A stretch of 61,755 bases of DNA, filler included, from Sphacelaria rigidula (taxonomy: Eukaryota): assembly GCA_964200075.2 (NCBI GenBank). It is 9 parts of 9 records of this genome, joined end to end, with 100 filler letters (N's around TTAATTAATTAA, not from the genome) between each part and the next. Parts side by side here need not be neighbours in the genome. Positions count along the whole stretch, not along the records: positions 48,112 to 54,883 come from CAXNAA020018154.1; 8 more parts are not named here. One strand, given 5' to 3'. Positions 6,637 through 55,712 of the stretch are shown piece after piece (position 1 is the first letter of the stretch; every line of letters begins with the position of its first letter). The notes beneath the pieces are model-generated. The model saw nothing but the letters and a program-made list of their open reading frames with translations. It searched no databases and was not told the origin of the DNA. The position numbers and the translations under genes were made by a program.

Positions 6637-6774
6637 CGGGGGCGCGGGAGGGGCGGGGGCGCGTACTCATTTGTTGCCTTCGTCATTTGGTCATTGGCCA
6701 CGCATCGATTTCGAGGAGGAGCACCGCACCTACTCCTGATAGAGACATCTCCGACATTCGGGCGCTGTTTATGT
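6637..6774 (-). mobile_element. LINE family A 3' end with C-rich tail
   Basis: G-rich tract followed by GCGTACTCATTTGTTGCC...; matches the end of the LINE at 17630-17743. Runs into the contig end. Confidence 0.85.
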
Positions 6775-13791: not shown

Positions 13792-13824
<33 letters not shown>

Positions 13825-14192: not shown

Positions 14193-14335
14193 GATCTAGC
14201 TTGATCACCGTCATGATTACCGCAAAAAAATGCAAGGGCAAAAACAAAACGGCAACCTGGTTGGCTAGCTTACGCGGTGAGTGGCGTGTTTCACAGCGTC
14301 GTTGCTGACCGACGCCAACCCCGTGGGGAAGAGAG
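14190..14335. repeat. Dispersed repeat (second copy ~50250-50400)
   Basis: ATGATCTAGCT...CTGGTTG(G/C)CTAGCTTACGCGGT(G/T)AGTGGCGTGT...GACGCCAACC is present at both loci. Confidence 0.75.
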
Positions 14336-14420
14336 TGGAGGGGGTGGGTGGGTAGTCATTTGTTGTTCACGTTAGTCATCTTACCATTGACCACGCATCC
14401 CTCGCGAAATGGAACATCGT
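14335..14420 (-). mobile_element. LINE family A 3' end (short, diverged)
   Basis: G-rich tract followed by TAGTCATTTGTTG...ACCATTGACCACGCATCCCT. GTGGAGGGGG occurs on both sides (possible TSD). Confidence 0.7.
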
Positions 14421-16179
14421 TGGCGTGTGTGTGCGCGCGCGTGTGGAGGGGGGGGGAGCAGCCACCGGGCAGTATAATTAGAAGACGCCCCACATAAATA
14501 AATTTAGTACATCTACGCTTGCCACGGTTGCGGCAGCCCAAGCGGCAGCGGCCGAGCATATCGCACGCAATACGCCCGTGCGTCGGTTCCTACTGCAGTG
14601 TACTGCCTGTACGGGGTACCGTTTTGATCTTACTCAGTGTTTCTATTGATCTGTGCCGTCGCTGCGCGGGCGGCTCGAGCTGTACTGTGCTGTCAGACAG
14701 CAGGTTCTAAACAGAGAGCACCGCAGCTACCGTCGTATGTAGCTGCTGCTCCGAAGATTGAGGGTGGCTCGCACGCTGCGCGCGATGCCTCTCAATCCTT
14801 CAGGAAAACAAGCTGCAAGTACTGAAAACGTCAGCTCGCGCGTACGCAAAGCAAGTTTCCAGTGACGTCGAGGAGCGTATACGTTTACATGTGAGGCTTG
14901 CCTTTGTGCTTCCCAGTAAGCAACAAATCTCACAAGCAATGGGAAACTATGTGTGTAATCACCCCCAAAAAGCAAAGGCCTATTTATTTTCGTCTTCCGG
15001 TCACTTTAGACAAGTTCGGAAATAAACAGGACGAAGGGGTGAGACGAAGGCTCCTACCAACGGTAGGCCAGGAGCCACAGCGGCGGCCCCAACCGTCCCC
15101 ACGGAGGCTGTCGAGAATGAGGCAAAACTAGGGCAGCAGCTTCATAGCTCTTTTCTCGACCATTACATGCAATCGAACATCGCGGTCACCACCCATGAAT
15201 CCCCGTGCGTGATCAGCCCAAAAACGAGGAGTTTCGGTATCTCCCCTGTGGTGAAGAGGTGTATGGGCTCCGATAGCAATCTGGTTCAAGGTCGGAATTA
15301 CCAGCACCCACTTTTGGATCATGGCATTTGCATGATATAAGATACATGTCCACAGCATATCACTTGATCTTAGTTCTTCTATGTTTTCTGCGCCTTTCTG
15401 TAACCCGCCCTAGCCTGGACTTACGACTGCGCTCCAACATACACCCCTAAAACCTCTTGTATCCCACTTTGTCTTCCATGCCCTGAACAGTAGATTAGAT
15501 TGTCAAGAAATCCACTTCGTACAGTGTGGAATCTGTTGTCTATTGCCATGGACGCAATAGTCGCCACTGTACGCAGCGCACTTGCCGACAATGTTGGCTG
15601 CTGTTCAGGGCGTGGTGTCTTCACCCGCCAGCTTCATCTGAGCGCCGCAGCTGTACTGCACAGCACGGCACGGTGCACTGCTGCTGCACTGTACTGCTCA
15701 GCTGTGGTGAATGCGATGGCATGACTAGTTCCGTTCCGTAAACCGATGTCGGAGCAGCAACTTGTGCAACCTAGACTGTTCTACCGGCGGATATATTGGG
15801 TTTTCATATGACATTGCAAGATGTGGCATAGGTAAAATAACTTAGATTTTCACGTAAAGGATATCCTCATCCTCCCGACCCCAAACCTACCCCTGGGTCG
15901 TTGCCCTAGCCCCAGGTCTTACCCCTTGGTCCGCTTTTTTTTTTTTCACACTAAAACCAGGACGACGTCAACCAAGATCAGAAAATGTTTTCTCATACAA
16001 AGGACAATTCCACCCGCACTCTATTTGATGCAGCTTTCATCCTGTACTAAGTTTGATATCCTCATGTGCGGTGGGTACAGTAAACTAGGGAATGGTCGGG
16101 GTGTACGCACAGTTTTTTATTTGAAAAAATTGTTCGTCGCACCTTGAACCCTTTTCCTTGAAAAAAAATCCAAAAAGCC

Positions 16180-17745
16180 AGCCAAAAGGGCTATGATGCT
16201 AGACGGGGAAATATCAAAATATTTGGATAGCTTACAAGGAGTTGCACAAGGGTATACGTCATCATCCCCTCTCTTCTAGTATTCATGATATCAGCAATAG
16301 AAACAGGAAAGCAAGGAGTCAATGTGGGTGAAAATATAGTATCAGGATTGATGTTCGCGGATGATTTCGTGGGGACTTCAGAAACCCCAGAAGGATTGCA
16401 GACACAGATAGACAAGGCGCTGGAATACACTCGGAAATGGAGAGCGACAGCGAACGTCAACAAATACGCGGTACTTGTATGTAACGAAGATAAGAAGAAC
16501 CCGGTAGAGTTCAAATGGAAGTGGGGACAAGAGGAACTGCCGATCGTAGACCAGTATACATACCTTGGCGTGGAGATATATGAAAAGAACGTTCTTGGGA
16601 TGACACATAAACAAAGTATTAGAAAAGGGTAAGGCAGCAGGCAGGATGGACGTGATCCTCAGAGACTCGCACCTGGATACTAGGATTAAGAGATGTATTC
16701 TGATGAACTGATTGTACCAAAGCTGGAATATACAGCACAAGTATGGGAGGGGAACGTGGAGTTGGTGAAGAAGTTGGGAATAATGCAGATGGCAGCAGCT
16801 AAAAAAATACTTGGATGCTTGAAAACGACGAGTAATACAGCACTGGGAGCAGAGTTGGGAATGTACTCACTTCAAACTAACAGCGACGTGAACCAATTGC
16901 GATAGCAATATAGCTTGAAGAACATGCAGAGGAAGAGATTGCCAGCTATAATTGATGAAGCTGTATGGGGGAAAATTACGAAAGGGCAGGCTGGAATAAG
17001 GTGGGATAGAGAAGACGAGAAGTATGGAAGGAGACAGGAGGAAACCAAGACGAAACACTGTCCAAAGGCGAGGGCGCGGGGTACAAGACAAAAGTAAGAT
17101 ACATGATGGAAATGAGGAAACCCGCTGAGACGGAAAGTAGACGAGGAACAACACCTGAAGATATACGGGGAGTTGAGAGAGGGGATCCGGATGAAAACAT
17201 TTTTACATGGCCCAGTGGACGGGGGAAATAATTAAAACTGCGATTTCGGGTTGGGGACCTAGGCCTGCCAGAAAGAAGAATTAATGTACCAGTGGTCGAG
17301 AGGAGGAGGAAGTAGATGCACAGAATTGCCCCTGTCAAAGAAAAAGAGAGCATAACTCACATAGTAGCAGAATGTGAACTATACAAGGAGGAATGGTACG
17401 TGCTAGAGGGGGAAATGCGGGACGTCAACGAAGGTGGCATGAAATCGTTTGATGCAGTAAGTAGACAGTAGCGACAAAACAATGGCTATACTAGGAGATA
17501 GATCGTGGCCACAGACGGTGAAACAGGATGGGGATAACATGTGTCAAAGGCCTTTGTTTAATGTACGGAAGAAATATAGTGAGCACCTAAACGTTGGAGG
17601 TCTCTATCAGGAGTAGAAACGGTACTCGATAGTGAGCACCTAAATGTTGGAGGTGTCTCTATCAGGAGTAGAAACGGTACTCCGTCTCGAAAGGGATGCG
17701 TGGTCAATGATCGAACGACTAAGGCAAGCGACAAATGAGTACGCT
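16180..17745 (+). mobile_element. 5'-truncated LINE family A (RT C-half, CCHC-like finger, 3' end)
   Basis: QGVAQG, MFADDF, YTYLGV, CPC..E..HIVAEC, LGDRSW, and terminal KGCVVNDRTTKASDK* followed by GTACG and a C-rich tract. Internal ~54-bp tandem duplication at 17576-17682. Confidence 0.92.
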
Positions 17746-18045
17746 CCTCTCCCTTCCTCGGGACGAGTCCGTGGTCTCAAGGGATCAACCCATCTCTCCC
17801 TGGCACACGCCTTGCATTTTGGTCTCGCGGATTGGGTCATGACTATCAGCACTGCCGCACCGCGCCAACTCTCCTCAAACAAACGTAGCCAACTACCTCT
17901 TGTTTACCAACGTAACTTTCGACGGTGGGAATCAGCCAGTTCGAGGAAAAACCCCAACGCATCGGGTATCGAACCCACCTTCTCTCCACGCTAGTAGTGA
18001 CAGTCGGACCATTTTAATTCATACCACCGGGGCGCGCCGGCTAGT
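17745..18045 (-). mobile_element. tRNA-derived SINE family 1
   Basis: Minus-strand head with B box GGTTCGATACC; homologous along its length to 22256-22540 and to a fragment at ~47195-47250. Confidence 0.75.
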
Positions 18046-20520: not shown

Positions 20521-21000
20521 NNNNNNNNNNNNNNNNNNNNNNNNNNNNNNNNNNNNNNNNNNNNTTAATTAATTAANNNNNNNNNNNNNNNNNNNNNNNN
20601 NNNNNNNNNNNNNNNNNNNNAGTAATAATAATAAAAATAAAAATAAAAATAAAAATAATATTAGATGATCTTTTATGTTTGAAGAAAGGAGGCAAGTCCC
20701 CGACTTTAGAACGTGGTGCGCAAGTATCCGTCCGCTCGAAGTATGGGCACCATCACTGATCCTAGGAGTATACCAACAGCATTCCGTTGTTCACAGTCAC
20801 TCGTACACGATCTTGTTCGAAGCATCAAGTCGTGGCAACAGGATCGATATATATATACTGGATGTGTATGTGTGTGACGAGATGGAACCACCCCCCCCCT
20901 GTAGCGACAGCGGTCGATTCTAGCGAATATACACCGACAGAAATTTCCAGTCTCATACAATGCTGAAAATATTTCTGCTACCGCCGCCTATGCTACGTAG

Positions 21001-22255: not shown

Positions 22256-22540
22256 AGCCGCCGCGCCCCGGTGTTGTGATGGTTTGACTGTCGTCATTAA
22301 GGTGGAGAGAGTGAAGGTTCGAGTCCCGATGTGTTGGGGTCATTCTTCATAGTGTGTGATTTCCACCGTGGTAAGCGTGAACCAGTGAGTAAACATGGTA
22401 GTCGACTGAGTTTATTTGACGTGAGTTGACACGGTGCGGGAGTGCTGATCCAATCCGCGAGACCAAAATGCAAGGGGTGTACCGGGGAGAGATGGGCTAA
22501 TCCCTTGAGACCACGGACTTGTCCCGAGGAAGGAGAGGGT
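22256..22540 (+). mobile_element. tRNA-derived SINE family 1
   Basis: B box GGTTCGAGTCC at ~22316 and purine-rich end CCGAGGAAGGAGAGGG; matches the reverse complement of 17745-18045. Confidence 0.75.
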
Positions 22541-24308: not shown

Positions 24309-24539
24309 CTGTTGAAACGACCGAACCGTGGTACAACACATGAAACGGTTGAAAAGTAAAGTATCATACGGGTACTGAAGCAAAGCGGTAGCACGTAGTG
24401 CATCATGATACAACACCGTTGTTTTGTGTTGAACAAACGGGCTGTGGACTTCGCAACAAATCATTGGACCTCGCTTTCTGCTCTGAACCTAGATACTGTA
24501 CCATGACTTTACGTGCCTTACCTAGCGCGGGGAAGTTGG

Positions 24540-34203: not shown

Positions 34204-34366
34204 AAAGTTAGTCGTGGGAGTTTGATACCCGTCACTTTCACTCCGAGGAGGGCGACTCACAATATCNNNNNNNNNNNNNNNNNNNNNNNNNNNNNNNNNN
34301 NNNNNNNNNNTTAATTAATTAANNNNNNNNNNNNNNNNNNNNNNNNNNNNNNNNNNNNNNNNNNNN

Positions 34367-37300
34367 CGCTGTATGACCAGTTTTTTCGTGACCCTTTCAG
34401 CTGGTTTTTGGGGGGGGCTATCGTAAAAAGTATCACGGACTCTAACTGAACGCCTCGCTGCGTTCGACCAGATGCACGACTTCATTCGACGTGATGAACA
34501 TCGTTTGCGTCAATGCACCACGGCCACGGAGACTGCCACCACGGCTCTACGCTTTCTAGATTAGGAGCAATACCTTCCTCTTCTGAGGACCACGCCGAGC
34601 GAGCCAGCGCCTGCACCTTGTGCCGTCATTTCTGACTCGGCGGAAGCACGCCAGCCCTCGCGCCCACACACTGCTGCTGCGGCACCTACCGCCTCGCCTG
34701 CGCGCACCCCGCCATCGCCACCGCAGGACCTTCAGGCCTCGGCGTCCCCTGCCCTCACACCTTGGCTCCGCCTTCAGGGTAGCGAACGTTCTTGGCTTTC
34801 TTGGACGCTACGCCAACTGTCAGGAAAGTACAACCGCAACAACGTTCTCCGCGCCTCCGAGGAGGCTTGGCGCTCGCTTACTCTGCCGATCAACAGCGTG
34901 ATCGTCCTTTTCCTTCAGCAAGGGGGACATCTGCCGCACAACGACCCGGGAGCTCTCAACATTGAACGAATTGTACTCTACCTTACGATTGTTACCGGGG
35001 ACAGTCGCCCCGCTTATGAGATCGCCGTCGCCGCCCTCTTCGCTGCTATGCGTGCAGCTCATAACACGCTGTCGCCCGACGATGATGGGGCCTGGACCAC
35101 ACCCTACCCCCCTCGTCACCGTCGTGATGATGACGACTCTGACGACGACCCTCCCGGGGCCGCACCACGCCGTGGTCAAGGGACCCACCGCAACAACAAC
35201 AACGGTCGACGCACAACCCGGGGCAGCCACAAACGGTCTGGTAATCAGTCTTCAAGTTCATCAACTGCCAGGCCCCGCCAACACGCCTCAACGCGATCCG
35301 TACGGCCCTCACCGGCCGTCAGGCAAGTAACGCCCCCTTTGGCGGCTGCGTCTGCTCGCCTCCCAGGTCTTATTGATAGTGATAGTGACAATTCGGCTCG
35401 CCCATTGTCTTCTACCCCGGCTCGGTCACTAGCTGCCGCCGCCGCCGCAGCCACACAACAAGCTGCCGCTGATAAAGCCGCTTCCGATACTCGTAAAGAA
35501 GCGTCTCGTGTCGCTGCAATCAAGCGTGAAAACTTACAGATGAATGTCAAGAAACTTTGGCATATCAAAATCATGCCTGCTGCAGACATTGAGGACTATG
35601 GTCAGTTTATATCCGCTCTCATTTCCTCAATGCGTCGAACTATGCGCGACATCCTTGAGTTGGCCGACGCAACTGGACAACAACGTTTCGAAGACTCCGA
35701 CTGGATTGATGAATGGCAAACCCCGTTACACAAGGCTTTGCATCGCTCAATCAGCCGTCGCTTCCCTGACGTCGCTGCTTCTTTGACGCAGATTCTCGAC
35801 TCCTTCTTCGACGCAATGGATCAAGATTGTGCTGGCGGGCAAACAGCGCCGCTACGATTCGGCAATTTGGAAAGGCGCATCGTAAGTTATTTTGATACGT
35901 CTGATCAGACTGGCGCCATCAAGCGCCTCAGTTCCTTCGCCGAGGCAATAGACGTGCCCTTTGCTGACTGCCTACGCGAATTCAAGCTAGTGGTGTCTAG
36001 TGTAACTGGTACTGGCCGACAGAATGGCCCTAGTGATGCTATGTGTCAGACATATGTTCGCAATAGTATCGCTCAGCAATTTCCGACGCTGATGCCGTCT
36101 CTGTTTCCGGGCGCTTTGGCGCACAAAGAGGTGTCTTACGCCTCCGTAGATGCGATGTGGACTGCGTTTGTAGATCAAGAACATAATTTAACGCCTGCCA
36201 TTCGTGGCACACAGTGTTCTTCTGGGTCTTCGCAGACCTTGCGTGCCGCATCCACGAGTATCTCCGGGTCTCGTGGACGCACTCACACTTTGTCCAGTAA
36301 TACTTGGACACCCAATTCTGTCGGTGGATCGGTCATGTCTGTTCATAACAAAGAAGACCCCTTCCGAGCAAGCTTCGACGCTTGGCCTTATTCGGCAGAC
36401 ACTTTTGATGACGTTTATGTCGTTTCCACAACTGCTTTCATCACCGATGATCCGCATTTGTGGACCCCCTTGCTTTCGCCTTCGGCTCGCAAGGATGCTT
36501 TTCGACGCCTTGCTAACACATGCATCAACTGCAATGGTACTGACCACAGTATGCGTGACTGCCCTGAACCTTGCATCAATACTTTTTCGCTCATGAACCC
36601 TGGACTTCAGAGCAACGGGCCGGCGTGGCGCCGATGGCAAAAACGCGTGCGCGAGTATCGTACACCGTCTCGCCACCATCGCCAGCCTTACCACAATCAT
36701 AACGACTTTCGCTCAAATCGCGACCGCCGCCACACCACCAACACCGTCTCAGGTACTCGCCATAGAGTTAGTTCTTTCCACCCTTCTCAGTCTTTGCATG
36801 GTCATCACCAGCGAACGGGGCCGACTGACGACAACTCAAACCCCAATGCCAGAACCCCCGGCTCTTTCATGACGGATCGCAACGACCCATGACACGCCGA
36901 CGACGGCGTGAAGTCTTCGGCGCCGTCGATAGCAGAATCGAAGACTCATCCAACACACACCGCCGCTTGGGTGAGAAAACGTTGTCACCCAAATGTTTCC
37001 ACATTATGTAGGAGATCTAATGACGGTCGTTCTTCTTGACCCCCGTCTTTATCTTCATACACACAGCGTAACCGTTGTGTTGACTCACCACCCAGCTCTA
37101 TGCTTGGCTCCAGACTTGGTCCCCTGGAACTAAGTAAAAATCTGAGGTGTGGGAAGACTGACCGCGGACCCTTGAGGCACACGCTTCCCTCAACGACCAC
37201 ACGCACCGGTTGTAGCAGACTTCCTTCGACTGGTTCTGGTGTTGATGGTTCGAAACTGACCACTTCAACCCCTTCGACTCCCACCCAGCCTGATCGCAGT

Positions 37301-40300
37301 CGATCTTTGCGTCACCCTTCTGCCGCGAAACTACCCCGACATACAGCGGACAACACTCGTCCCCTTTCACATTTAGCAGTGCACTTTGTACCGAGCTTGC
37401 CAGCGGACAGTCCACAAGTTTCGGCCAAGCATGCCCCGATGCTGACAACATTACCTCAACTAGACGCAGTTGCAGTTTCCCAAGAAGTTTCGGAAGTTCC
37501 CAGCCATTTTTCACGGCACAAGAAGAAGCCTCGTCGTCATGCCCCCAAGGTCGCGCGAGCATTGACACGCCCCCCTCCCGTCAACGGAAAACTCCGACCT
37601 CATTCTCCCCAAAACGCGGCGACTTTGAGCTCGATGACATTGCCAGGCATCCAAGAGGAACGCAAATCGGACCTTTCAGACGGTACCGCTTCCTCCACTG
37701 ATGACCCACGTGGCACTTCGCAGCAATCTATCTTCAATGATAACCCTTGTACTTCCAAGCCCGTCATCTACGAGATTGATCAAAATCCTCATTCACGCTG
37801 CCCTTCACGATCGGATCATGCCCCCGCGCTGTCTACCGATACCTTCGAACCCCCCGCGGACCACCCGCCATCCGTCTTCACGGTCAGTCCGACTAATCCT
37901 GACCAACTCACGTTATCTGAACATGGCCCTGACCTCGTAGGTGGTAAGGTGTCCATTGACCCTGCCACCTTCACTACCCGCGTAGCATTACACTGCGGCC
38001 CTTACGCCACCACGCGCGCCAAGTATGTCTCGTTGTTAGACAGCGGTAGTCCACAGACATTCATCAAAGAATCCATGTGGAATCACATGAAGCTTCCGAT
38101 GTTTGCGAAATCACTAACCAACCTCGCGTTTGGGGCGGTTTCGGCGACTCCAAAACATCCTTGACGACACGAAAATCTGTTCGTCTTAGTGTGCAGTTTT
38201 TCCACAATGATACACGTTCGGCTAGTCTCGCAGTCTGGGCTTACATCGTCCCTGACAGCACCATGCATCATGCTCTCCTTCTTGCCAGAGATAGCTACAT
38301 GCGGTTCGACCAACGTACGTACCGCACCCTCCCATCACTATCGCCTCAGTCGGCGCCTCGTGGAGAACTCCAACTAGAACATTTATATACCCTCAGTGGT
38401 GCCTTAGCCTACAAAGAGAATGAGTAGGCTACCGGCGCGGCTTACCACCTTCGGTACACTGACAGTTCTGGTGTCACTCGTTCCGACGAGCCTCAACTCT
38501 TGGAAGTTTTGCTTGTTCGCCGCAACGGTATGCCTGCCCTCACCGGCCACCACCTTGCGGAGTTGCTGCCTAAAATTGGTGCGCCCGCTAGCACTGAGCA
38601 TTTTGTCCCGGACGGCGAATAACTCCTGCCTCTCACAGGCCATGCTAATTTGGAACCTGGCGATGTCTTGGGCATCGCCGCGGCTTCTCTCATGCACATT
38701 CCTCTAGATACCTGTGTGGCCGACCCTCCGGCGCCTGATCCCACACCGCCGACTAATGGTTCTGTTCACTGCATTGATGAGCCATACTTTGATCTATCCT
38801 CATCACTCCCGACCCGGATTTCTGCGGTGGAATCCGACCGACCACCTGCTGAAACTCCTGATGAGGTGCTTCAACGCCATCGGTTGAGTCTCGGGAACAC
38901 TTCCTGCAAATGTAGCACCAACTTCCGCCTTATTCGCGTGATATCGATCTCAATCTACATGGTCCGGGCTGGGAGCCCGCTGTCATCCAAGAGTTACACG
39001 ATGTTCTCCTGGATTACCAAGACAGATTTTCCCGATCCACGACGGATCTGGGGAATTGTAAAACATTGCCACTCGAGATAACCTTGCAACCTGGCGTTTC
39101 GCCCATCTAATCTCGACCATATCGAACGAATCCCTTCCTCACCAGAAAAGTCAACGCTATTTTGGATGCATACTTAGTAGCTGGTCTGATTCAACACTCG
39201 TCTTCGCCATGGGCCTCACCCCTCGTGGTCGTCCCCAATATAGATGGCAACATACGCATCACCGTGAAATACAAACGACTGAACCGTGTCACTGTCGTGG
39301 GAAAACTCCCCATACCTCGCATCGACGAAGTCGTCGACTCTCTCGGCGACGGAAAAATATTCAGCACTTTCGATCTCGCATCTGAATTTTCCTAAAATGC
39401 AATTCACCCCTATACAGTTCCATTGACAGCGTTCTGTACATCTTCAGGGCTTTATGAATGGCTTCGTATGCCACAAGGCGCTGCCACAGCACCTGGCTGC
39501 TTTCAACGCCTCATGCAACGCGTTACTGACGGTCTCGAGCATGTTATCATGTATCTGGACGATGCTATCGCTTTTGAAGCCTCCCCCAAGGCGCATGTTC
39601 GCACTCTACGAGAATTTCTCTCCCGCTTGCGTACACACGACTTGAAATTGTCTCCATCCAAAGCTCGATTCGGAGCGACTGCATTGGATTTTTGGAGACA
39701 CTCTATCTCTCCTGCTGGATTGCACCCAGACACGAACAAAGTCAAGGCTATGACTGATATGCCCATGCCCACCAATATTTCGCTGCTTCGCTCGCTATTG
39801 GGCGGACTTTCTTACTATCGTAAATGTTTGCCCAATTTGTCGAAGCGGATCCGGCCCATCACCGATTTAGTGAAGAAAAACGTCCCGTTTGTCTTCACTA
39901 AAGAAATGGAAGCTACCGTCCGCGAATTGCTCAAACCACTGACCGAAAAACCGATTCCTTTTTTACCGGATTGGGATGCAGTACAAGACGGCTCACGTCT
40001 TTTCCAACTGCACACCGATGCTAGCATAGATGGGCTCGGCGCCGTTTTGAATCAGCCTCAACTAGATGGCTCTGCCCGACCTGTTTTGTATATTAGCCGC
40101 ACAACCCTCCCAAATGAGGCAAACTGGAGTCCACTCGAACTAGAAGGCGGAGTCATAACTTGGGCTATTAACAGGCTTCGACAGTACTTGTTCCACGTGC
40201 CTTTCCACATCTATACAGATCACGGAGCTCTTGAACAACTCGCTAAGGTTGGAGAACATAACGCCCGCGTACAACGGTGGCTGGAGTTCTTTACTGCTTA

Positions 40301-41065
40301 CCAGTACGCTGTTAAACACCGTCCGGGCAAAACCAACGGCAATGCTGATCTTCTGTCGCGATTGCCCCTGCCCCCTATAGCGGTAGATTTCAGTCCCGCT
40401 TGCCGCTTGACTAAACCTGAGAACCAGGCGTCTACCCCATTCGGCGTTTTTCTACGCCCATCTACGCGCTTGACTTGCAATGCCCCGAAACAGGTCTGCA
40501 CATGGGGGGCCCCCGCCCTCTGCCCCCTGATGCAGTTTTGGATTGGCTTAGCGCCCACAGCTGCTGACTTTGCCGACTTTCGCACTTTCGGCCCTCGCGC
40601 GAACATCTCGGCGCCGCCACCACCAACTGTTCACTTCATCTCCGACAACACGCGTTTCCGGTCAGCAGAGCGTGCAAATTCTTCGTGTGCCGCGATACCA
40701 CCGCCGCCGTCGGCCGCTTCTAGCAATGCGTCGCCGCCACCGCCGCATGCCCCCACGAGCAGTACAACACCTGCCACAACCGGCCGCGCGACCACTGTTG
40801 TACCGACAAAGTCCGCGCCCCATGCGCGCCCAACGCGCCGATCACGTTCGCCGGTTCGCGCTACCTCCACGCAGCCTTCTGGGAATCTCCCTGCACCTAC
40901 GCCTCTGACTCGCGATCCGCATGGGTCAGATCCGCTTCCGGACCAAACTGTTGACGTCGGCACCCCTGCTTCCTCACCTGTGCCACCCCCTCCTGAGCCA
41001 CCATGTTTGGTCGGCTCTCCGGCTGAAGGACAACTTCGGGAATTTCTCGGAGCCACCCTACGATA
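34367..41065 (+). mobile_element. Ty3/gypsy LTR retrotransposon internal region (gag, PR, RT, RNase H; integrase and LTRs not on contig)
   Basis: Protease LLDSGSPQTFI (~38035), SPWASPLVVVP, FSTFDL, MPQG, YLDD (~39552), LHTDAS, ELE, YTDH, NADLLSR. pol has several frameshifts and stops. Confidence 0.95.
34898..36892 (+). CDS. Gag-like protein with CCHC zinc knuckle (664-codon open frame)
   Basis: Uninterrupted ORF upstream of the protease with CINCNGTDHSMRDC (CX2CX4HX4C). True start uncertain. Confidence 0.85.
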   Translation: MIVLFLQQGGHLPHNDPGALNIERIVLYLTIVTGDSRPAYEIAVAALFAAMRAAHNTLSPDDDGAWTTPYPPRHRRDDDDSDDDPPGAAPRRGQGTHRNNNNGRRTTRGSHKRSGNQSSSSSTARPRQHASTRSVRPSPAVRQVTPPLAAASARLPGLIDSDSDNSARPLSSTPARSLAAAAAAATQQAAADKAASDTRKEASRVAAIKRENLQMNVKKLWHIKIMPAADIEDYGQFISALISSMRRTMRDILELADATGQQRFEDSDWIDEWQTPLHKALHRSISRRFPDVAASLTQILDSFFDAMDQDCAGGQTAPLRFGNLERRIVSYFDTSDQTGAIKRLSSFAEAIDVPFADCLREFKLVVSSVTGTGRQNGPSDAMCQTYVRNSIAQQFPTLMPSLFPGALAHKEVSYASVDAMWTAFVDQEHNLTPAIRGTQCSSGSSQTLRAASTSISGSRGRTHTLSSNTWTPNSVGGSVMSVHNKEDPFRASFDAWPYSADTFDDVYVVSTTAFITDDPHLWTPLLSPSARKDAFRRLANTCINCNGTDHSMRDCPEPCINTFSLMNPGLQSNGPAWRRWQKRVREYRTPSRHHRQPYHNHNDFRSNRDRRHTTNTVSGTRHRVSSFHPSQSLHGHHQRTGPTDDNSNPNARTPGSFMTDRNDP

Positions 41066-41139
41066 GGGGGGGGGGGGGCGTACTCATTTGTTGCTTGCCT
41101 TAGTCGTTTGACCATTGACCACGCATCCCTTTCGAGACG
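41066..41139 (-). mobile_element. LINE family A 3' end with C13 tail inserted in gypsy pol
   Basis: G13-CGTACTCATTTGTTGCTTGCCTTAGTCGTTTGACCATTGACCACGCATCCCTTTCGAGACG directly after the pol frame ...LGATLR. Confidence 0.9.
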
Positions 41140-41314
41140 NNNNNNNNNNNNNNNNNNNNNNNNNNNNNNNNNNNNNNNNNNNNTTAATTAATTAANNNNN
41201 NNNNNNNNNNNNNNNNNNNNNNNNNNNNNNNNNNNNNNNTCACTGATTGACCGCTTTTCACTCTCAATCGTATAATCTACTCTCAATCTCACGAAAACAC
41301 TGTTTTTCGCGGTC

Positions 41315-43959: not shown

Positions 43960-45092
43960 AGTTTTCATCCCGATCCTTTCTTTTAACCCCTCGTGTGTCT
44001 TCAGGTGATCTTCCTCGTCTACTTTGCGTCTGAGTGCTCCTTCTCCCCTCATTTCCATAATGTATTTTACTTTTGCCTTGTTCCCCATGTCTTCACCTAT
44101 GTATGGACAGTATTTCGTTTCGGTTTCCTCTTTTCTCCTTCCATAGTTTTTCTACTTCTTTATCCCACCTGGTTCCAGCATTCCCTTTTGTACGTTTCTT
44201 CCATACAGCCCAATCAACTAAAGCTGGCAATCTCTTTATCTGCATTTTCTTTACGCTATATTATCACCTCAGTTTCCTCATGTCTCTTTGATTCAACTGA
44301 GTGCATTCCCAACTCTGCTGTCAATGCTGCATTACTAGTCGTTTTCGAGCATCCAAGTACCTTCTTAGCTGCTGTCATCTATACTGTTTCCAACTTCTTC
44401 GCCAACTTCACGTTCCCCTCCCATACTTCTCCTGCACATTCCAGCTTTGGTATAATCGCGTTCATCAGGATATATATCCTAATCCTAGTGTATAGATACG
44501 AGTCTCTGATGACAACGCCCATCCTTCCTATCTGCCCTAACATTTTCTATTACATTTTTTATGTGCGCATCCCAAAAACAGTTTTTCGAGATGTCGACAC
44601 TCAGGTATGCATACTGGTCTACGATCGCCAGCTCCTCTTCTCCCCACTTCCTCTTGAGCCCTACCGGGTTTTTCTTGTCTTAGTTACAGACGATTACCGT
44701 GCATTTGTTAACGTCCGCCGTCACTCTCTATTTCCTGGTGTATTCCGGAGCATTTTCTATCTGTTGTTGCAATCCTGCTGCTATTCCTGAAATCCCCACA
44801 AAATCATCTGCGAACATCACTCCTGATATCACATCTTCACCCACCTTGACTCCTTGGTTTGCTGGTGCTACAGCTAATATCAGGTCATTGAAGAATATCT
44901 CGAATAAAGTGGGTAAGAATATACATCCTTGTGCAACTCCTTGTAAAATATCAAATATTTCGATATTTCCCCGGCTAGCATCACGGTACTTTTGGCACAT
45001 TTTGACATCTTCTTCGCTTTTCTTCACATATTTCCTCTGGTCCAAGTTTCCCACAACTTTTCCAACAGCCCCTTTCTCCATGCTGTGTCAAT
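43960..45092 (-). mobile_element. Internal fragment of a family A-like LINE (RT)
   Basis: DTAWRKG, QGVAQG, FNDL, MFADDF; collinear with 16190-17200. Confidence 0.9.
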
Positions 45093-46913: not shown

Positions 46914-47307
46914 AGCTTTTCGGTTCGTTATCAGTCCATCGTTTTGAGAAGAGACTCAGTGTTCTTTGTTCTGTGTTGTCCAAATAAAGCGCTTCAGTAA
47001 ACCATCGACTATCGTACAACGATAGTAACTTGACAGTTACTGTGCACCATCTTCGGAGTTTATACTGTCACCGATACTCTGGCGTCTAGTTCCTCTTGTC
47101 ACTTGATATAGATTGAGCGAGCTCCTGCCTGTAAAACAGGTGGGCAGTTTTCTACATATCTCATGCAGAGAGAGTCATATTATTTTCTATGACAACCCTT
47201 TCCCACCGGCAAACGCCTTGCATTTAGGTCTCGCGTATTGGATCAGTACTGTAATGCGTGAGCAGACCGCGTGCTTTTGGATCTTATCGAAGTTTGAACA
47301 CCCCTAT

Positions 47308-47384
47308 GGTTGGGCTTGGGCTTAGGGTTAGGGTCAGGGTTAGGGTCAGGGTTAGGGTTAGGGTTTTAGGGTTAAGGTCAGGGG
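47308..47384 (+). repeat. Interstitial telomere-like (TTAGGG/TCAGGG)n tract
   Basis: About 12 units of TTAGGG/TCAGGG/TTGGG(C). Shorter tracts at 55633-55657, ~53172 and ~53965, and reverse at ~15880-15925. Confidence 0.85.
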
Positions 47385-48410
47385 CGCGCCCCCCGCAGCA
47401 ACCGGCCTGAGCGGTCTTGAAACACGTCGGTCCCGGAGTGTTTTGAACTCCGATGCGATTGAAAAGGCACGCGGTCCGCTCAAGCGTTACAAATACCCCC
47501 GCACCGCGTCAACTATCGTCACACAAACCCAGTCAACTACTATTATTTGTTTTCACGTGCTAACGCCGTCGACGGTGGGAATCAGGTACTTCGAAGAAAA
47601 AAACATTCATAAAGATTTGACTCACGTTTTCTCCACCCTAATGGTGGCTGTTGGACCATGAGACCATCAAGGCGCGGCGGCCATGAGCCGCAACCAAAAA
47701 GTTAGCTTCCGAGTATTCGACGTTGCAGCCGGCTAATACAGTGAAGGGGTAGTCAATCATCTTCAAAATTACTTGCAATTTTTGCCGCGCAGCTTCAGTA
47801 GAACAGAGGGCCGGTGGGGGATGCACACACATTCATTGGGGGGACCTAGTCACACTCGTTTACCTCCAACATAAACAACTACTTTTGTGCTGATGCTTTC
47901 GTCTGGAAATCCTGTTTCGAGCATAATCTGACTTTTTGGAAAACAACTTGAAACAGCCGATTTTCGAAAATGGGGTTGAAAAAAAATGAGGTTCAACTCA
48001 AAAGCCGTGCTNNNNNNNNNNNNNNNNNNNNNNNNNNNNNNNNNNNNNNNNNNNNTTAATTAATTAANNNNNNNNNNNNNNNNNNNNNNNNNNNNNNNNN
48101 NNNNNNNNNNNCCGAATCATGATTCGAATCAGTTTACTGATGAGCAAATTTCAGACGGGTTATGATCTGCCCGACGTGTGTAAAACTTGGACCGGCTTTG
48201 CCCATTTGACATGACTTTTCTTGGATCTGGCTATTTCCCGCGAATTACATCAGTGCAAAGCAGCAAGTGATTACTCAAACACGCACCGTCGAGGCATAGG
48301 TGACGCAGCTTCAAGAATAACAAAGCGGTATCAAGAGCTTTTCCCGCGTTTTTGAATATGATCCGCCGTTTCTCCGCACTCTTCATTCCCTCGAGTTCGT
48401 ATCCAAACAG

Positions 48411-48570
48411 TGGCGGCTACAAGCCCATTTCGGGCTAGGAATGCTCGTCGTCCGTTTGGCTGCCGAAAGGAATTGGCAGCCTTGCACAAAAAGCAAAGGA
48501 TTTCGACCCAAGAAACGCCCCAAGAATGCGGCGAAAAATGGCATGAGCTTGGACACCGTCAACAGCCCAG
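48411..48570 (+). pseudogene. Possible degenerate HMG-box exon
   Basis: Pyrimidine tract and CAG acceptor, KPISG* and then, in another frame, RKELAALHKKQRISTQETPQECGEKWHELG, resembling HMG helices 1-3. Confidence 0.3.
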
Positions 48571-48971
48571 ACTCATGAGACATGTGTGTTGATGAAATAT
48601 ACCTCGCCTCAAACTCAAAGACAGAGCCTTTCACGTTTTCTTGCAAAAATGTCAATCATTGTGTGGTCCCTGCATGCTGTCCGAAAGTGGTTTTGCTTCA
48701 TTTCAAATATGCTGTATTTCATGACCATCACTCCCAGTTTTACTCTCAACCAGTACGTGTCGTGAGACATATTTCATATTTCATCACACATCGCATAGGT
48801 GCACTTTTTCTCGGGGTGGGGGTGGTTGTTCCGAACTTCAAAAGCAAAGTCAAATATCTCGTCCCTCCTTTTCTTTTCTCTCATTCCTCGCCTTTTCATG
48901 CCCGAGCATCCTAGAAATCCTATTCGCTTTTCCCTCGGGCGCGTACTCTTCATGCGAAGGGCGAGGGAGGA

Positions 48972-49078
48972 GGGGGGGGGGGGGGGGGGGGGGGTCCTTT
49001 TTNNNNNNNAGCGTACTCATTTGTTGCTTGCCTTAGTCATTTGACCATTGACCACGCATCCCTTTCGAGACGGAGCAA
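48972..49078 (-). mobile_element. LINE family A 3' end with poly(C), inside a G-rich tract of a host repeat
   Basis: G23, a few bases plus a short N run, then GCGTACTCATTTGTTGCTTGCC...GAGACGGAGC. Flanks match the uninterrupted repeat at 50664-50900. Confidence 0.85.
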
Positions 49079-49327
49079 GGGGGGAGAGGGGGAACTGACA
49101 CTGGATTTGGAAAGCTCATGGACTCTGCCCGAGGACTTTTCGTTTCTTCTATAAGCAGAAGCAATAATCTAATCTGGGATTTACTGCTCTTTTGATTTTC
49201 AACGCGATAACCAACATGTTGAATTCAGAGTACTTTGCGGTGAAAGCCTCCTGTCGTCAATGCCCCGGGGGATTTCGTTTCCTTGCCTCATGGGTATCTC
49301 ACCATCGTAGAGAGCAGAAGTTGGGGA

Positions 49328-49520
49328 GGGGGGGGGGGGGAAGGTGTACCGATGATCTCGCATGCCAGTGCCATATGACCTTTGACCGCACCAGGCTCGC
49401 ACTCAAACCACCAAGCGCGAAGCGCCGCGGTGTGCTCGGCGAGTCGCATGAAGGATAACCTGCATCCTGCCAAGATTGTTTGGCCGTAGCGTATGGGTAC
49501 TTGAAGGAACATAATACCCT
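49328..49520 (-). mobile_element. Family B 3' fragment with poly(C) tail (internally deleted)
   Basis: G13 followed by AAGGTGTACCGATGATC...CCAAGCGCGAAGCGCCG.GGTGTGCTCGGCGAGTCGCATGAAGG, as at 52480-52525. Confidence 0.75.
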
Positions 49521-50985
49521 TCGTGACGCAGAAAACGACTGGTGGATTACAACATTCAATTCATCGCGACAAATTTCATTATCTGGCAATTAGATGTTCG
49601 AACATGGTACACCAGAGTGATGCTATGGTAGGTGTACAAAAATAAATTCTGAGGTCAGAATTGTTAGGAGCCCTTCATCTCATCCAAAACACGACTTACG
49701 AAAATATGCGAGCGTACGCCAGGATTACTATTTCAATGTACCGGAGATGTCCCGAATAAATCTGCAAACGGGGATGCCCTGGCCCATATTCTTATGCGTC
49801 TGAAATCGTTAGGAGCCCCTGAACCAGACAAAAATGTACGAAAAAAGTGCACCCCTACCGTAGCATTGGTCACCACTACACTGTCTGCAACTGCGTGTGT
49901 ACTGTCCACGAGAGCGCAGTGGCCGAGGTTCGCTCGGTGTCCTTGGATGTAGATGCGTGGATATACGGAACAATATTTTCGTGAGGTTGAGAGTAGAGGT
50001 CAGTCAGTGAATTGAGAGTAAAAAGCGGTCAATCAGTGAATGAAAAATTTCAGCTCCTTTGCGCAGAGTCACGGTTCTTCCAGCCCGCACAAGACTACAA
50101 TCAGGTAGCATATAGGTCATCACACTAATAATGGATTGATCCTATTCAAATGAACAATATGTATTCATAAATTTCTTGCGACCGTATGCTTGTGGCGAGT
50201 GGTTGATGTTTGGGGTTGGAATTTGGATGTATGGGAAAATGGACTTCGATATGATCTAGCTCGACCATGGTCGTGGTTACTGCAACAACGAAAAAAAGCA
50301 AGCGCGCGAAAAAATCGGAAATCTGGTTGCCTAGCTTACGCGGTTAGTGGCGTGTCGTACATCGCATCATCACCAACAGACGCCAACCAGGTAAAGGGGG
50401 TCTGCCCCCTAAAAAGCCGGTACAAAACACGCCGGGTGTTCGTCGGAACAGGCAGAGGGAAGGGTTGCGCTTACGTACTCAGTACCCAATAGCAATCAGT
50501 TGCTAGTAGTAAAGCTTCCTACACAAGACTAACTGACTGTCTCGGTTGATCGTTGGACACCGAGAAGCCACATACACAGTCGGGGCAACAGAGAACACAT
50601 CTTGTCTGGGGTATTACACGCCTTTTCACGCCAGAATAATAAAAATTTCGACCACTTTTTCATCGGACGCGTACACCTCGAGCAGCGGAGGAGGGAAGGG
50701 GAGGGGAGGGGAGGGTGGGGGGAACCGACACCGGATTTGGACAAATTCTAGAGCACGCCCAGGCGCTTCTTGTTCTTATAGCAGCAAAAACAAAAAAAGT
50801 TTTGACGATGACCAGACCTGTTGGTTCCAAAATACGTTGCGGCAAACGCTTCGTCTCATCATCGCCCTGATGAGATGTTTTTTCGCCGTGAAAGCAAATT
50901 CCACAAAATAATGTGACTTTTGTTTCATCCCCCAGTAAACCATCCCACCACCCCTCACGCAACAAATAAGTGCGCCCTTACCCCC

Positions 50986-51057
50986 ATGCTCCTTCTCGAA
51001 AAGGATGCGTGGTTAATGATCACACGACGAAGGCAAACAACAAATCAGTACGCCCCA
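50986..51057 (+). mobile_element. LINE family A 3' end (short)
   Basis: CTCGAAAAGGATGCGTGGTTAATGATC...AACAAATCAGTACGCCCC with a C-rich 5' flank. Confidence 0.75.
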
Positions 51058-51134
51058 CATACACACACGAGAACACGGCAACACACACCAGTGCAGCCGC
51101 GAGCGATCGAACATACGTTCTTCTGGGCCCATAC

Positions 51135-52235
51135 GATGCCACCACCAAGGAAAAAGGCACGCAACAAGGCGGGGCTTTCCGACATTCGTGAAAAATACCA
51201 TGTGAGGGTTATTTTGGCCCAAAGCATTGCGATTCCTTCCCTCTCCCCCCGATATCCTCGGCTACCGACCTCGCTCGACACCGCAACCACTACTGTTGCT
51301 TCACAATTACAGTGGTTCTTCTTCAATAGTCATGAAGCAAAAACAGACATGACAAACCGTCTGACACGGCGCAAAGCACGACCGTACCACGAAAAAGCAA
51401 CACGGCACCGAGCCTTGCTGCTCAACACGGCGGCTACAACTTTTGACGTTCAGGGAGGCATGGAAAGTGACGAAAGCACCAGCACTACTCTACAAGCTTT
51501 CGTCGCCAAGCTGTTGCTGACCAAGCCATATCACACACAGCAGGCTTCATAATTCCGAGAAGCACCGGGTGACGCACGAAATGTCCCTGCGCCGTAGTAT
51601 TCAACACCCGCAGTAGCTCAACTCTGTGTTGACAACAAACGTGCCCCTTACGAGTGTGCGTGAACAAACCTCGTGTGCATCGAGCTGCATGCGCAAATCG
51701 GGGAGCTGTCTCCGACATACTTCTAGCCGTGACAAGCAGTAATCCGAGCGGAGAACAGGGCACTCACGGCTGCGGCTTGAAACGAAAGCGTTGTCGCCGA
51801 CAAGCCCTCGTCAAGGGGTCTTTTATGCTTCGTGGTGAAACGGATACCTGCACCCCATAGGACAAGGAAAAAAACCACACCTCGCTATCCTGCCTGGTCT
51901 ACAACTCATGGAAACTGTACATCGCTCCGGTGAGGCATGTGTGGAGTAAACACTCACCCGTCAGCTGGTTGTTGCCCAAAAACAGCTCCTCCACCGTCAC
52001 AAGCTGGCTCAACTCGGGAGGTATTTCGCCTGCGTGTCACACATCGGAGCAACCAATGGAATTGGCCATTATTTTTACGCGAAAACAAATCAACCATCAA
52101 GTACAGACTCCGTGCCTGGTGCATGCCGTGACTGGATGGCAACACAGGTACGTGTCTGCCCCTGTACGTGGAATCAACGTTGTATCAGGGGCAAGTCACT
52201 TCGGTCTTCGCTAGAAACATTTGCCGATAGCGTGT
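51135..52235 (+). pseudogene. Degenerate pogo/Tigger-like (Tc1/mariner superfamily) transposase
   Basis: MPPPRKK start, LLAVTSSNPSGE, DKEKNHTSLSCLVYNS and ISPACHTSEQPMELAIIFTRK echo the NAxG, LLxDN and PP..TS..QPMD.GII...K blocks. Frameshifted. Confidence 0.5.
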
Positions 52236-52272
52236 AGAAGAACGAATAAATCTTCGGGGGGCTTGGGCCCGA

Positions 52273-52740
52273 GGGGGGCGTACTCATGATCATGCATGCC
52301 ATAGTCATATGACCATCAACCTCGCATCCTCTAGGGCAAAAGCTCTTTAAAGCAGGGCGGCGCGTGCACTGCGCCAAGTTGATACGGGGTTGTAGTGAAA
52401 TTATCCCCCACCCTGCCGCGAGGCGGTCGAGCCGAGCCTTCGGGTGATCGTCTCCCCTGGACCAGGCTCGCGTTCGATCACCAAGCGCGAAGCGCCGTGG
52501 TGTGCTCGGCGAGTCGCATGAAGGGTGAGCTTCATCCCGCTGAGACTGCTCGACCCTCAGCCTGTTGATGATCTTGCATTTGGATAACATACAATGAGTT
52601 GCTACATTTTCTGGTGTCGCCCCTGATAGAAACAGCCACGGCTTATGCACTGCCTCACGGGTGTCTCACCATGTTGACACTACGTAGTACGATCATCCCC
52701 GTTGTGCAGAGTTGAGGTTCTCCCACGCCGCACAACACTA
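52273..52740 (-). mobile_element. Family B 3' fragment with C6 tail
   Basis: G6-CGTACTCATGATCATGCATGCCATAGTCATATGACCATC. Collinear with 13824-14192, with G-rich sequence also at the 5' junction. Confidence 0.78.
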
Positions 52741-54983
52741 CAGGGCGGGGGGGCAGTAGGTGAGGGGGGGACCAACAGAAAAGGAAAGAAAAAAAAAAAT
52801 ACTCCTGTTTGCCTCGCTCCTGTGTGACCCCGGCTGACCCACCCGCGTGTACCGAAAGGTGTATACTGACGTCTGGACTAGGCGGGATGACAACACACAC
52901 ATGTAAATGGCTGGCCTTTGCCACATCGCTTCGGTGGAAAAGGGCTTGCACAGAGCCACCCTATTGCGTAGGATAACACGTCTTGTAACAAGATTTTGGT
53001 ATGTGTATGGTACAGGAAATAATACAACAAGACTGATTGCATCACCTTACCCAAACCATGAATAATCTCACAACTCTCTCTTTCCTGGAATCAAGTAGAT
53101 CGAGTGCCAACCATTAGTAACGGAAATTTCTCCAGGTTTTCGGTTTTAGCGGAGGTAGCAATTTTATTCCAGGGTTGGGGTTGGGACTAGGAGTATTGGC
53201 AGACAATTCCACCATATAAGGTTATACGCTGACATGGCGTTCAAGCCCAAAACAATGGTTCTCCGCACTTCCAGCGATGGTGCCCGATGACTTCTTTGTT
53301 AACCTAATGCCCCTAGATTGCGTGAGTACTCCTTCAGCGCATTTCACCGACTCCGTGAGCTTACAGCCGTGACCGGAACTGTCGTTTCCTCTGTTTTGGG
53401 GTGTTGTATAAGGAGAAATGACGGTTTCGGCCAGCGCTGTAAGCTCGCAAGAGTAGGGAACGAGAGAGTATTCACGAAACGGACGGGCATCAGGCGGACC
53501 AAAAAAGTCATGGTCATGCTGAAGGTGTGTAGACAACACCGTTTTGGTCGTGAACCTCGATTCAGCGTACAAACTTATTTTGGAGAATCGTTTGCGTAGT
53601 ATTCGAATGGTATGCGAATGATTGAGATGGCATGGGATATATATACTCGATCTGGTATATGAGCTTAATAGTTTGTCTTTCTTCTTTTTGTATCTGGTGT
53701 AGTATATGTTGAAAATTCAACAGTTGAAGAGACGTGGTGTGTGTGTGAGTGTGCCGTCCCATCTATTTTGGGCGCCGCTCAACGCTTTTTGGTATTCGTG
53801 GGCACACCGGCCGGGGTCACACAGGAGGAAGGTCAACACAGGAGCTGTGGTTTTGTTTTGTGTTTATAGCACAACTTTGTTGAGCGATGCTTGCCTTTGT
53901 TTTTCATCGGGACAGGGGTTCGGCACTCCTTTTTCCTTGTCGACCGTTGAGTCTAAGTTTGACTTTAGGGTTAGGATTAGTAATTTGAAAAAATTGGCCA
54001 TGAGCACAATTGAATAGCGGCTATACAAGTCGGCTCAACCGAGAAATGCAACGTATCGGAATCTGCGCAAGAACGTTGATATAATCCACCGATTCGCCGA
54101 CGATCACGAGCGGGGAGTGAAATTTGACCAACTGACCGATGAGCGATTGTTGAAGGGCAGTAAACGTCGGGTCATCCGCGAAATTCAACGTACTAAACTT
54201 TGCCCCATAAAAGAGGTAGAACTTATCAAACCATCGTTGAGCGCAATAACCAAACAAATGGCGCGAGGAAAACGTTGAAATTTGCCGATCACCACGAACG
54301 ACTGTCTATGTCGCGTCGTGACGTATCAATTTACATTTACAATTTCGTTCATCATAGCGAACGTACAGCGACAGCGCTAGTCGGATAGAAACATGACAGT
54401 TCCGCCGATGAGCACGAACGAGAAGTCAATATCTTCTCACAGTGCCATTTTAGATTGTATGGCAGTTCGCCGTGTATCGTGGACCTACAGCGGCAGTGCA
54501 CGTCGGGTAAAATCAGTGCTGATTCGCCGATTTCCAGCATTTGTCGATCGACATGAGGGTGTAGTGAAATAAAAGACACGATCGTGTCGGGTCAAGAACT
54601 TACCGCTTCGCGAGCTATGGGTATGTACAGATGGCGAGATGAACACCCACCCTTGGAATGGTGATAAAACAGGGAAGCGATGAGGTATGGCGGGATTAGC
54701 GTTGACGGCGAGACATTTTACCCGAGGGGAAAATATGCTCCAAGACGATGGAAAGCGCGATACGATATGACATCTTGATTCCCACCTTGGCACTCATTTT
54801 GACCTGACAGCGATTGACTGTTCTTGACAGTCGTATACAACGGTACTGTCGTAGTATGTCTGCCGTATTCTTGTATATTTTTANNNNNNNNNNNNNNNNN
54901 NNNNNNNNNNNNNNNNNNNNNNNNNNNTTAATTAATTAANNNNNNNNNNNNNNNNNNNNNNNNNNNNNNNNNNNNNNNNNNNN

Positions 54984-55518: not shown

Positions 55519-55712
55519 AGAACGCGTTTTCGTTGAAATCGGCGACACAGGCGCCGAGTTGGGGTCTACCAAGGCCGCACTCTGCCTAGGGAATGTACGT
55601 TCCACCCTTGCCCGAGGGTTCTCGGTATGCGTTGGGCTAGGGTTAGGGTTAGGGGTAGCGATACTTGTAAGATTGTGTCAACCATTCTAAAACGTAGCCT
55701 AACGACGGTTAA
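55401..55712. mobile_element. ~310-bp TIR element containing TTAGGG repeats
   Basis: CCGGCGTTGGGCTACGTTTTAGAATGGTTGA ... TCAACCATTCTAAAACGTAGCCTAACGACGG, with internal CTAGGGTTAGGGTTAGGGG. Confidence 0.7.

Follow-up and report, generated by a model that had tools for sequence, protein, structure and literature searches.

Putative insertion of a poly(C)-tailed LINE at G-runs in the genome of Sphacelaria rigidula

Introduction

A long interspersed nuclear element (LINE), here termed family A, that carries a run of C rather than poly(A) at its 3′ end was identified in a 61,755-nucleotide (nt) stretch of DNA from Sphacelaria rigidula (hereafter the window), where one copy of the element lies inside the G-rich tract of a host repeat, R1, that is also present nearby in uninterrupted form. 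The best reading of family A insertion is that it follows the priming logic of the human LINE-1 element (L1) with C:G pairing replacing A:T, such that G-runs in the target would prime reverse transcription. The preference for G-runs is one that we infer from a handful of sites, and a probability of about 0.5 is attached to this reading.

Materials and methods

The window consists of nine pieces of 6772–6774 nt joined by linkers of the form N44-TTAATTAATTAA-N44 (positions 6775–6874, 13648–13747, 20521–20620, 27394–27493, 34267–34366, 41140–41239, 48012–48111 and 54884–54983); genomic adjacency is real inside single pieces only and never across linkers. The filled and empty pair of R1 copies (48938–50745) lies wholly within piece 8 (48112–54883). 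The family A copies at 14335 and 17745 are both in piece 3, the uninterrupted copy of the short interspersed nuclear element (SINE) discussed below is in piece 4, and the repeat at ~50390 is in a different piece from the 14335 and 17745 copies. Junctions between a G-run and a LINE end are situated within ~120 nt of the end of four pieces and of the start of one, as might be anticipated since assemblies are expected to break at such repeats.

Family A 3′ ends were called with an nhmmer profile. Flanks were aligned with the G-tract excluded and compared with 500 shuffles per side, while direct repeats were assessed against 2000 composition-preserving shuffles. Joints in contigs from public reads (runs X1–X4) were counted among the joints listed only, and the counts given are hence lower bounds. 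Copies of the element outside the window were sought by scanning public collections with one 24-nt and one 19-nt word of the element.

Results

A family A end within the G-rich tract of a host repeat

Two copies of R1, located 1.7 kb apart, are present in the window (Table 1). R1 is a moderately repeated host sequence, and an old one given that the copies are only ~70% identical (~30% diverged); BLAST between them aligned 117 nt at 68% identity and 24 nt at 92%. The initial annotation had described the sequence at 50664–50745 as a host repeat containing a G-rich tract, and that at 48938–49115 as a paralogue with similar flanks that carries the family A end inside the tract. Both descriptions were borne out, with the amendment that the tract, which is followed by AACCGACACCGGATTTGG, is 36 nt in length, one G having been dropped from the original transcription. 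The left flanks (48860–48958 versus 50590–50682) aligned with a z-score of 14.7 and the right flanks (49094–49260 versus 50724–50900) with a z-score of 10.6, and on neither side did any of the 500 shuffles reach the observed score; the failure of the two copies to align across the insertion point, which had been named as an outcome that would count against G-tract targeting, was not what was found. Furthermore, a 19-nt motif of the right flank occurs window-wide only at these two copies. The idea that R1 is itself a LINE end, on account of its CGCGTAC... start, was rejected, because the R1 homology extends to the left of that motif.

In the filled copy, the insert is bordered left and right by G-rich sequence (48960–48994 and 49080–49093), and the impure G-rich segments on either side align to parts of the uninterrupted R1 tract. 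The insert (49011–49079) corresponds to the last ~69 nt of the element, comprising the coding end plus 6 nt. It matches the terminus of the intact element found on an external contig (L010, described below) at 66 of 66 nt, indicating that this is a young copy, and shares 98% identity with 41078–41139 and 94% with 17680–17745. A consensus of loose read ends at 49077 continues into the full-length element, indicating that 49080–49093 is not element sequence, and the right junction is spanned by an X4 contig of 241 nt (49060–49267). The 23 G's to the left of the insert may include host G's as well as element tail. An empty allele that skips 48972–49079 was not present among the read joints listed, in contigs that drop rare variants.

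Family A and its C tail

On the basis of its sequence, family A is a LINE, i.e. a retroelement without long terminal repeats (LTRs), that encodes an apurinic/apyrimidinic-type endonuclease (APE) and a reverse transcriptase (RT). Six family A 3′ ends were detected in the window (nhmmer E-values from 2e-19 to 2.5e-24), and these share a 3′ terminus with four external copies, lengths varying from 69 nt to >4 kb; a common 3′ end combined with variable 5′ truncation is the mark of LINE-type copies. The longest copy in the window is 78% identical to 43961–44996. The external copies are found on three marine-metagenome contigs (L001–L003), all of them long copies with 3′ junctions only, and on a single contig (listed as both L006 and L010) within a bacterial metagenome-assembled genome (MAG). 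This is the only copy in that MAG, and the contig presumably represents algal contamination. Four of the five matches in the genome_contigs collection cover just 20–32 nt of the element and were set aside, since they look like chance (about what is expected for a 19-mer, by our own estimate); no family A match was returned from the viral contig collection.

The intact open reading frame (ORF) on L010 (108–4261, minus strand) encodes a protein of 1382 amino acids (aa), P0001, in which an endonuclease domain (Exo_endo_phos, PF03372, residues 193–415, E=8.1e-11; PF14529 at 302–437) is N-terminal to a reverse transcriptase domain (RVT_1, PF00078, residues 763–1012, E=6.7e-32). Family A translations carry a FADD motif, and P0001 has a C-terminal Cys/His motif. 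Against the PDB, the RT region matched LINE-1 ORF2p and R2 equally well, at about 1e-21, and no LINE clade was assigned for that reason. A protein atlas search returned only generic APE plus RT clusters. The nearest named relatives of P0001 are proteins of the brown alga Ectocarpus sp., of which P0005 has 60% identity over 75% of the query, others have 42–51%, and a further one covers 19% of the query at 77%; with unnamed metagenome proteins, identities of 91% and 75% were obtained. The 5′ end of the L010 element was not located. Upstream of the intact element, and in the opposite orientation, L010 also contains a diverged stretch resembling a LINE 3′ end (4742–4800; ...CTCCGTCTC...CATGAGT) that has no C-run.

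The TGA stop of the L010 ORF lies 6 nt before the element end and tail, leaving almost no 3′ untranslated region, so the 69-nt unit is made up of the C-terminal coding end plus GTACGC. The terminal ~60–70 nt are common to a second family, B, with ends at 13824, 20478, 49347 and 52281 (nhmmer E=5.8e-9 and 4e-6), and this conserved stretch is coding sequence. A 3′ stem-loop was not supported: the fold of the last 95 nt had a z-score of -0.39, and the consensus fold of the 3′ end, from an alignment in which one row had wrong coordinates, comprised four weak pairs at -0.44 kcal/mol. Scans of the window for Rfam families and tRNAs gave no matches, and no SINE that shares the family A end was seen in the window. 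The three short copies (49011–49079, 50986–51056 and 14350–14420) all start within 3 nt of one position (TGCTCC...); this fixed 5′ end, together with the tandem units described below, suggests either a discrete RNA of ~69 nt or a position at which the RT is strongly inclined to stop or jump.

The 3′ junctions of 15 copies were tabulated (10 of family A, six in the window and four external, four of family B and one unclassified). A C-run of at least 5 nt, and of up to 32 nt, begins in the first 20 nt past the terminal GTAC(G)(C) at 12 of the 15, always on the element sense strand; the remaining three are the 17745 copy, which abuts a C/T-rich SINE tail, the 49011 copy, in which a gap is followed by 23 C, and the 51056 end, which has CCCC only. 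A poly(A) tail was present at none of the 15 junctions, and AATAAA was absent from the last ~80 nt. The C-run junction is seen in four independent assemblies (L001, L002, L003 and L010), and is thus not an artefact of one assembly. Descriptions of a C-tailed LINE were not found in the literature, a search in which the bracketed term 'poly(C)' is unsearchable and which excluded transposable element libraries; any claim of novelty is a soft one.

The window contains seven G/C homopolymers of at least 12 nt, of which five are LINE tails. These seven comprise G-runs of 13, 13, 13, 17, 23 and 32 nt and a C-run of 12 nt, the longest A- and T-runs being 11 and 15 nt, respectively. Such a surplus of long G/C over A/T homopolymers is unusual for sequence of 48% GC. 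The two remaining runs, G13 at 7893–7905 and C12 at 19049–19060, do not adjoin any recognisable end of family A or B, and may have originated as tails of further families of the C-tailed kind.

Other insertion sites

The older unit at 14350–14420 is flanked, together with its tail and 21 extra bases, by GTGGAGGGGG at 14335–14344 and 14442–14451. This direct repeat of 10 nt, which the initial annotation had pointed out, is significant (p=0.0135) and could be a target-site duplication (TSD), in which case the bottom strand would have been nicked inside a G-run and the primer would end in GGGGG. The accompanying suggestion that the repeat at ~50390 is the uninterrupted form of this site failed. 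The sequence at 14191–14320 does align with 50251–50388, both being family B body (z=40), and the homology ends at 14320/50388, 15 nt short of the direct repeat; to the right of the insertion, comparison with 50389–50560 gave a z-score of -0.3, with 392 of 500 shuffles as good, and the proposed empty site was rejected on this account. The two family B body copies stop at the same base (after GACGCCAACC) and each is followed by a G-run within 15 nt, possibly a further example of a LINE 5′ junction with a G-run.

As first annotated, the 17745 copy lies directly against the purine-rich tail of a SINE, which is tRNA-derived: SINE homology to 22256–22538 starts at 17746, and the element is joined base-to-base to the tail, which ends ...GGGAGAGG, with no separate C-run. 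In the uninterrupted SINE copy (22256–22538, plus strand) the tail ends at 22538 and is followed by TTTTAAAG. The SINE tail is a purine-rich GAGGAAGG(G)AGAGG rather than poly(A), and the SINE lacks a family A or B end.

Targets of family A are diverse in kind, encompassing R1, a SINE tail and a Gypsy pol ORF (the 41066 copy). The inferred targets hold short runs, namely 5 G in the direct repeat, 6 G in the R1 tract and at most 3 in the SINE tail. A C-run (element sense) is present upstream of the unit at each of the three sites with two junctions, within 3 nt in two cases and ~25 nt away in the third, and the random expectation for a strand-specific run of at least 5 G within 3 nt is met at about 1% of positions. 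With a background of ~1%, the few valid cases would be unlikely to arise by chance if they were unselected, although selected they were. An involvement of G-quadruplexes, which had also been proposed, was not upheld, in that a four-tract motif occurs in the R1 tract (50687–50722) only, and no more than one short G-run is found in the 14335 repeat, in the SINE tail or at the 50986 site.

Public reads

In contigs assembled from public reads, the 5′ end of the unit (49076–49080) is joined to a G-run in at least 40, 51, 34 and 1 contigs of runs X1 to X4, respectively, and at least 3, 6 and 2 contigs contain units in tandem, separated by a short G-rich linker. A G-run directly at the 5′ junction of the unit is thus common, and target, neighbour's tail and RT-made run are indistinguishable in these data. 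Summed contig depth over the unit was 0.7–12 million (which is not a copy number), with perfectly matching flank contigs at 4–60; the copy number of the unit is clearly very high, consistent with the six copies in the 61-kb window.

Table 1 Positions of R1, family A and associated features in the window
Feature	Position	Strand	Remarks
R1 filled copy, whole	48883-49250		carries LINE end and 23-G run
R1 filled copy, left flank and start of G-rich tract	48883..48971	.	aligns to 50613-50686
23-G run (23 C in element sense)	48972..48994	-	read as LINE 3′ tail, possibly merged with host G's
Left junction: TCCTTTTT (48995-49002), 7 N (49003-49009), one base	48995..49010	.	
Family A 3′-terminal unit, 5′-truncated	49011..49079	-	nhmmer E=2.5e-24
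G-rich rest of R1 tract right of insert, 14 nt	49080..49093	.	outside family A consensus
R1 filled copy, right flank	49094..49250	.	aligns to 50724-50880
R1 uninterrupted copy, whole	50613-50880		
R1 uninterrupted copy, left flank	50613..50686	.	
36-nt G-rich tract of uninterrupted R1	50687..50722	+	paralogue's insertion point maps inside
R1 uninterrupted copy, right flank	50723..50880	.	
Third short family A unit	50986..51056	+	C-run just upstream, CCCC at 3′ end; nhmmer E=3e-20, model positions 11-78
Older family A unit (14350-14420)	14335..14451	-	short impure tail; 21 extra bases at 5′ junction
Longest family A copy in window, decayed C-terminal part of RT to 3′ end	16181..17745	+	joined to SINE tail; RVT_1 fragment 16231-16629
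tRNA-derived SINE, purine-rich 3′ tail abutting family A 3′ end	17746..18040	-	alignment to 22256-22538, B-box-like motif
Impure G-rich tail and longer family A copy (6661-6774)	6638..6774	-	cut by piece end
13-G tail and family A unit (41078-41139) inside Gypsy-type pol ORF	41066..41139	-	cut by piece end

Other features of the window

The Gypsy-type LTR retroelement into which the 41066 copy is inserted spans 34565–41066 (plus strand); its pol region encodes RT and RNase H (39396–41063), followed by ~250 aa rich in Pro, Ser and Thr, and is cut by family A at 41066. The only clear host gene seen in the window is an N-terminal proline dimethyltransferase-like gene on the minus strand, with two exons ~1 kb apart (22660–23070 and 24012–24488; PF05891, E=5e-36 and 3e-9). 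A tandem array of four copies of a ~300-nt unit, with 61–86% identity, is present at 10650–11840, and short internal telomere-like arrays of TTAGGG/TCAGGG are located at 47300–47375 and 55615–55666.

Discussion

In the mechanism that is favoured here, family A would insert by target-primed reverse transcription, the primer being a nicked DNA strand that ends in a few G's and pairs with the C tail of the element RNA. Short G-runs, including the C/G tails of earlier copies, would be favoured landing sites, and the tail would lengthen through slippage. This scheme, in which older tails are re-used as targets, would also account for the tandem units and for the location of most long G/C homopolymers at LINE ends. 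The G-run preference proposed in the initial annotation is retained to the extent that one valid filled and empty pair, one repeat that ends in G's, the SINE tail and the read data are in keeping with it, and is diminished by the small number of selected cases and by the loss of one of the two empty sites. The preference may reside in the nuclease, in annealing or in both.

A number of observations weigh against priming on G-runs. Only three insertions have both junctions, and these cases were chosen in the initial annotation; a significant flanking direct repeat was found at just one of these three short copies. At the filled R1 copy, the best word common to both junctions is 7 nt (p=0.21), and the 50986 copy has no convincing TSD. 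In the filled R1 copy, the 23-G run is separated from the end of the element by eight unexplained bases and 7 N, and the ~50390 repeat does not stand as the empty site of the 14350 copy. At 41066, the primer side reads ...CGATA and is followed directly by a pure 13-G run, with no visible G-run in the target; moreover, the frame of the Gypsy ORF argues for a base other than G at the next target position, an argument that is weak because this stretch of the ORF is of low complexity. The flank that adjoins the tail in L010 has a C-rich priming strand. More generally, at 5 of the 15 junctions a pure C-run gives way to ordinary sequence with no target G-run visible, although one could be hidden in the tail. 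Finally, the G-runs at both junctions could equally well have been made by the RT, via non-templated addition or template jumping, or could be the tails of neighbouring copies.

This last point forms the main rival, according to which the RT makes the G-runs, either by adding non-templated G's at the nick and at the cDNA end or by jumping from the 5′ end of a short RNA onto the C tail of another, such that the target is not special and the R1 tract is a coincidence. PMC8857657 documents non-templated addition, terminal transferase activity and template jumping for a non-LTR RT, and the start shared by all three short copies would fit a discrete short RNA. The tandem units with short G-rich linkers in the reads are also explicable on this basis, as is the ordinary flank that lies past pure G-runs at 41066, 20478, L001 and L010. 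However, the G-rich tract already exists in the uninterrupted R1 copy, and the impure segments beside the insert align to it; the 10-nt repeat at 14335/14442 includes non-G bases, and so looks like a duplicated target; and the SINE-tail junction was formed without any added run. Manufacture of the runs by the RT is therefore considered unlikely, albeit not to the point of being negligible.

It might alternatively be supposed that there is no preference whatsoever, and that insertion is near-random, with the few G-rich cases reflecting visual selection from a window in which LINE-made G-runs abound. With just three to four evaluable sites, one of two empty sites invalid, no significant TSD in two of three copies and no visible target G-run at 41066, there is material for such a view. 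It sits poorly, however, with an upstream C-run at every two-junction site where the background is ~1–1.5% per site, and with the dozens of distinct read contigs in which a G-run is found directly at the 5′ end of the unit, and chance insertion is judged to be distinctly unlikely.

A LINE that targets homopolymers, in which the endonuclease recognises (G)n/(C)n and the tail is mostly target repeat as opposed to being borne by the element, would explain the C-runs on both sides of short copies and the occurrence of units in tandem, and has a precedent of sorts in microsatellite-selecting LINEs, which reportedly exist. The inferred target runs are short, however, in comparison with the 13–32 nt at 3′ junctions, and the attachment of most long G/C homopolymers to LINE ends implies that the element makes long runs rather than needs them, leaving this an improbable explanation. 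Least probable is an artefact, whether poly-G from two-colour chemistry or a mis-join at the 7-N gap: the gap and the odd bases do fall exactly at the junction of tail and element, and no read contig of runs X1–X4 bridges 48957–49002, where reads are flagged as cut, but a sense-strand run is present at the same junction in four independent assemblies and at 14 other junctions, the X4 contig spans the right junction, and both R1 flanks are collinear with the paralogue.

Priming on G-runs would have counterparts among known elements. In PMC11014359, the L1 primer is described as base-pairing with the poly(A) tail. Family A is similar to human LINE-1 in having an APE and an RT (the RT matches L1 ORF2p with an E-value of about 3e-21), a homopolymeric 3′ tail and heavy 5′ truncation, as well as in the proposed pairing of a nicked primer with the tail and in insertion into the tails of older retroposons. 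It differs in that the tail is C and not A, in the absence of AATAAA from the last ~80 nt, in a stop codon only 6 nt from the tail, in short copies with a fixed 5′ end, and in the one long ORF, of 1382 aa, that L010 carries, no search for a separate ORF1 having been made. PMC3747384 refers to the TAA repeats of the I element and the TGTAA repeats of eel UnaL2, for which slippage on the repeat at initiation was proposed. Family A resembles these elements in ending with a short repeat that is not poly(A), and it may resemble 'stringent' LINEs in that the ~70-nt 3′ end is conserved between the diverged families A and B, even though it is coding. In contrast to the I element and UnaL2, the repeat unit of family A is a single C, a 3′ stem-loop is not supported, and a SINE sharing the tail is absent from the window.

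Further parallels exist with LINEs that accumulate in simple sequence. Kojima and Fujiwara are said to have described, in 2004, LINEs that select microsatellites as targets; family A is comparable insofar as the same simple sequence flanks it on both sides and tandem arrays are formed within the repeat, and is unlike them in that its inferred targets are short runs in ordinary sequence. The Zepp LINE of Chlorella forms nested head-to-tail clusters as new copies enter the tails of older ones, clusters that recall the tandem units of family A, and differs in having a poly(A) tail. Comparison with the Ectocarpus sp. LINE ORFs, the closest named relatives of family A, was at the level of protein and not of DNA ends.

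Taken more broadly, it is possible, if somewhat short of an even chance, that a LINE lineage from marine algae of brown-alga-like type exchanged poly(A) for a C tail and now primes on G-runs, with its own tails becoming landing pads and yielding most of the long G/C homopolymers as well as the tandem 69-nt arrays. If true, the base pair that joins tail and primer during target-primed reverse transcription would have been re-programmed in nature. Confirmation would provide a natural test, with C:G in place of A:T, of whether complementarity between the nicked end and the RNA tail sets the landing sites of LINEs, and P0001 would then represent a compact enzyme with which to examine how an APE/RT pair reads a tail that is not A. 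The same tracts have a practical bearing, since G/C tracts break short-read assemblies and several pieces of the window end at them, and if the reading is confirmed, much of the G-rich sequence and many of the G/C homopolymers of these algal genomes would have been traced to a major source.

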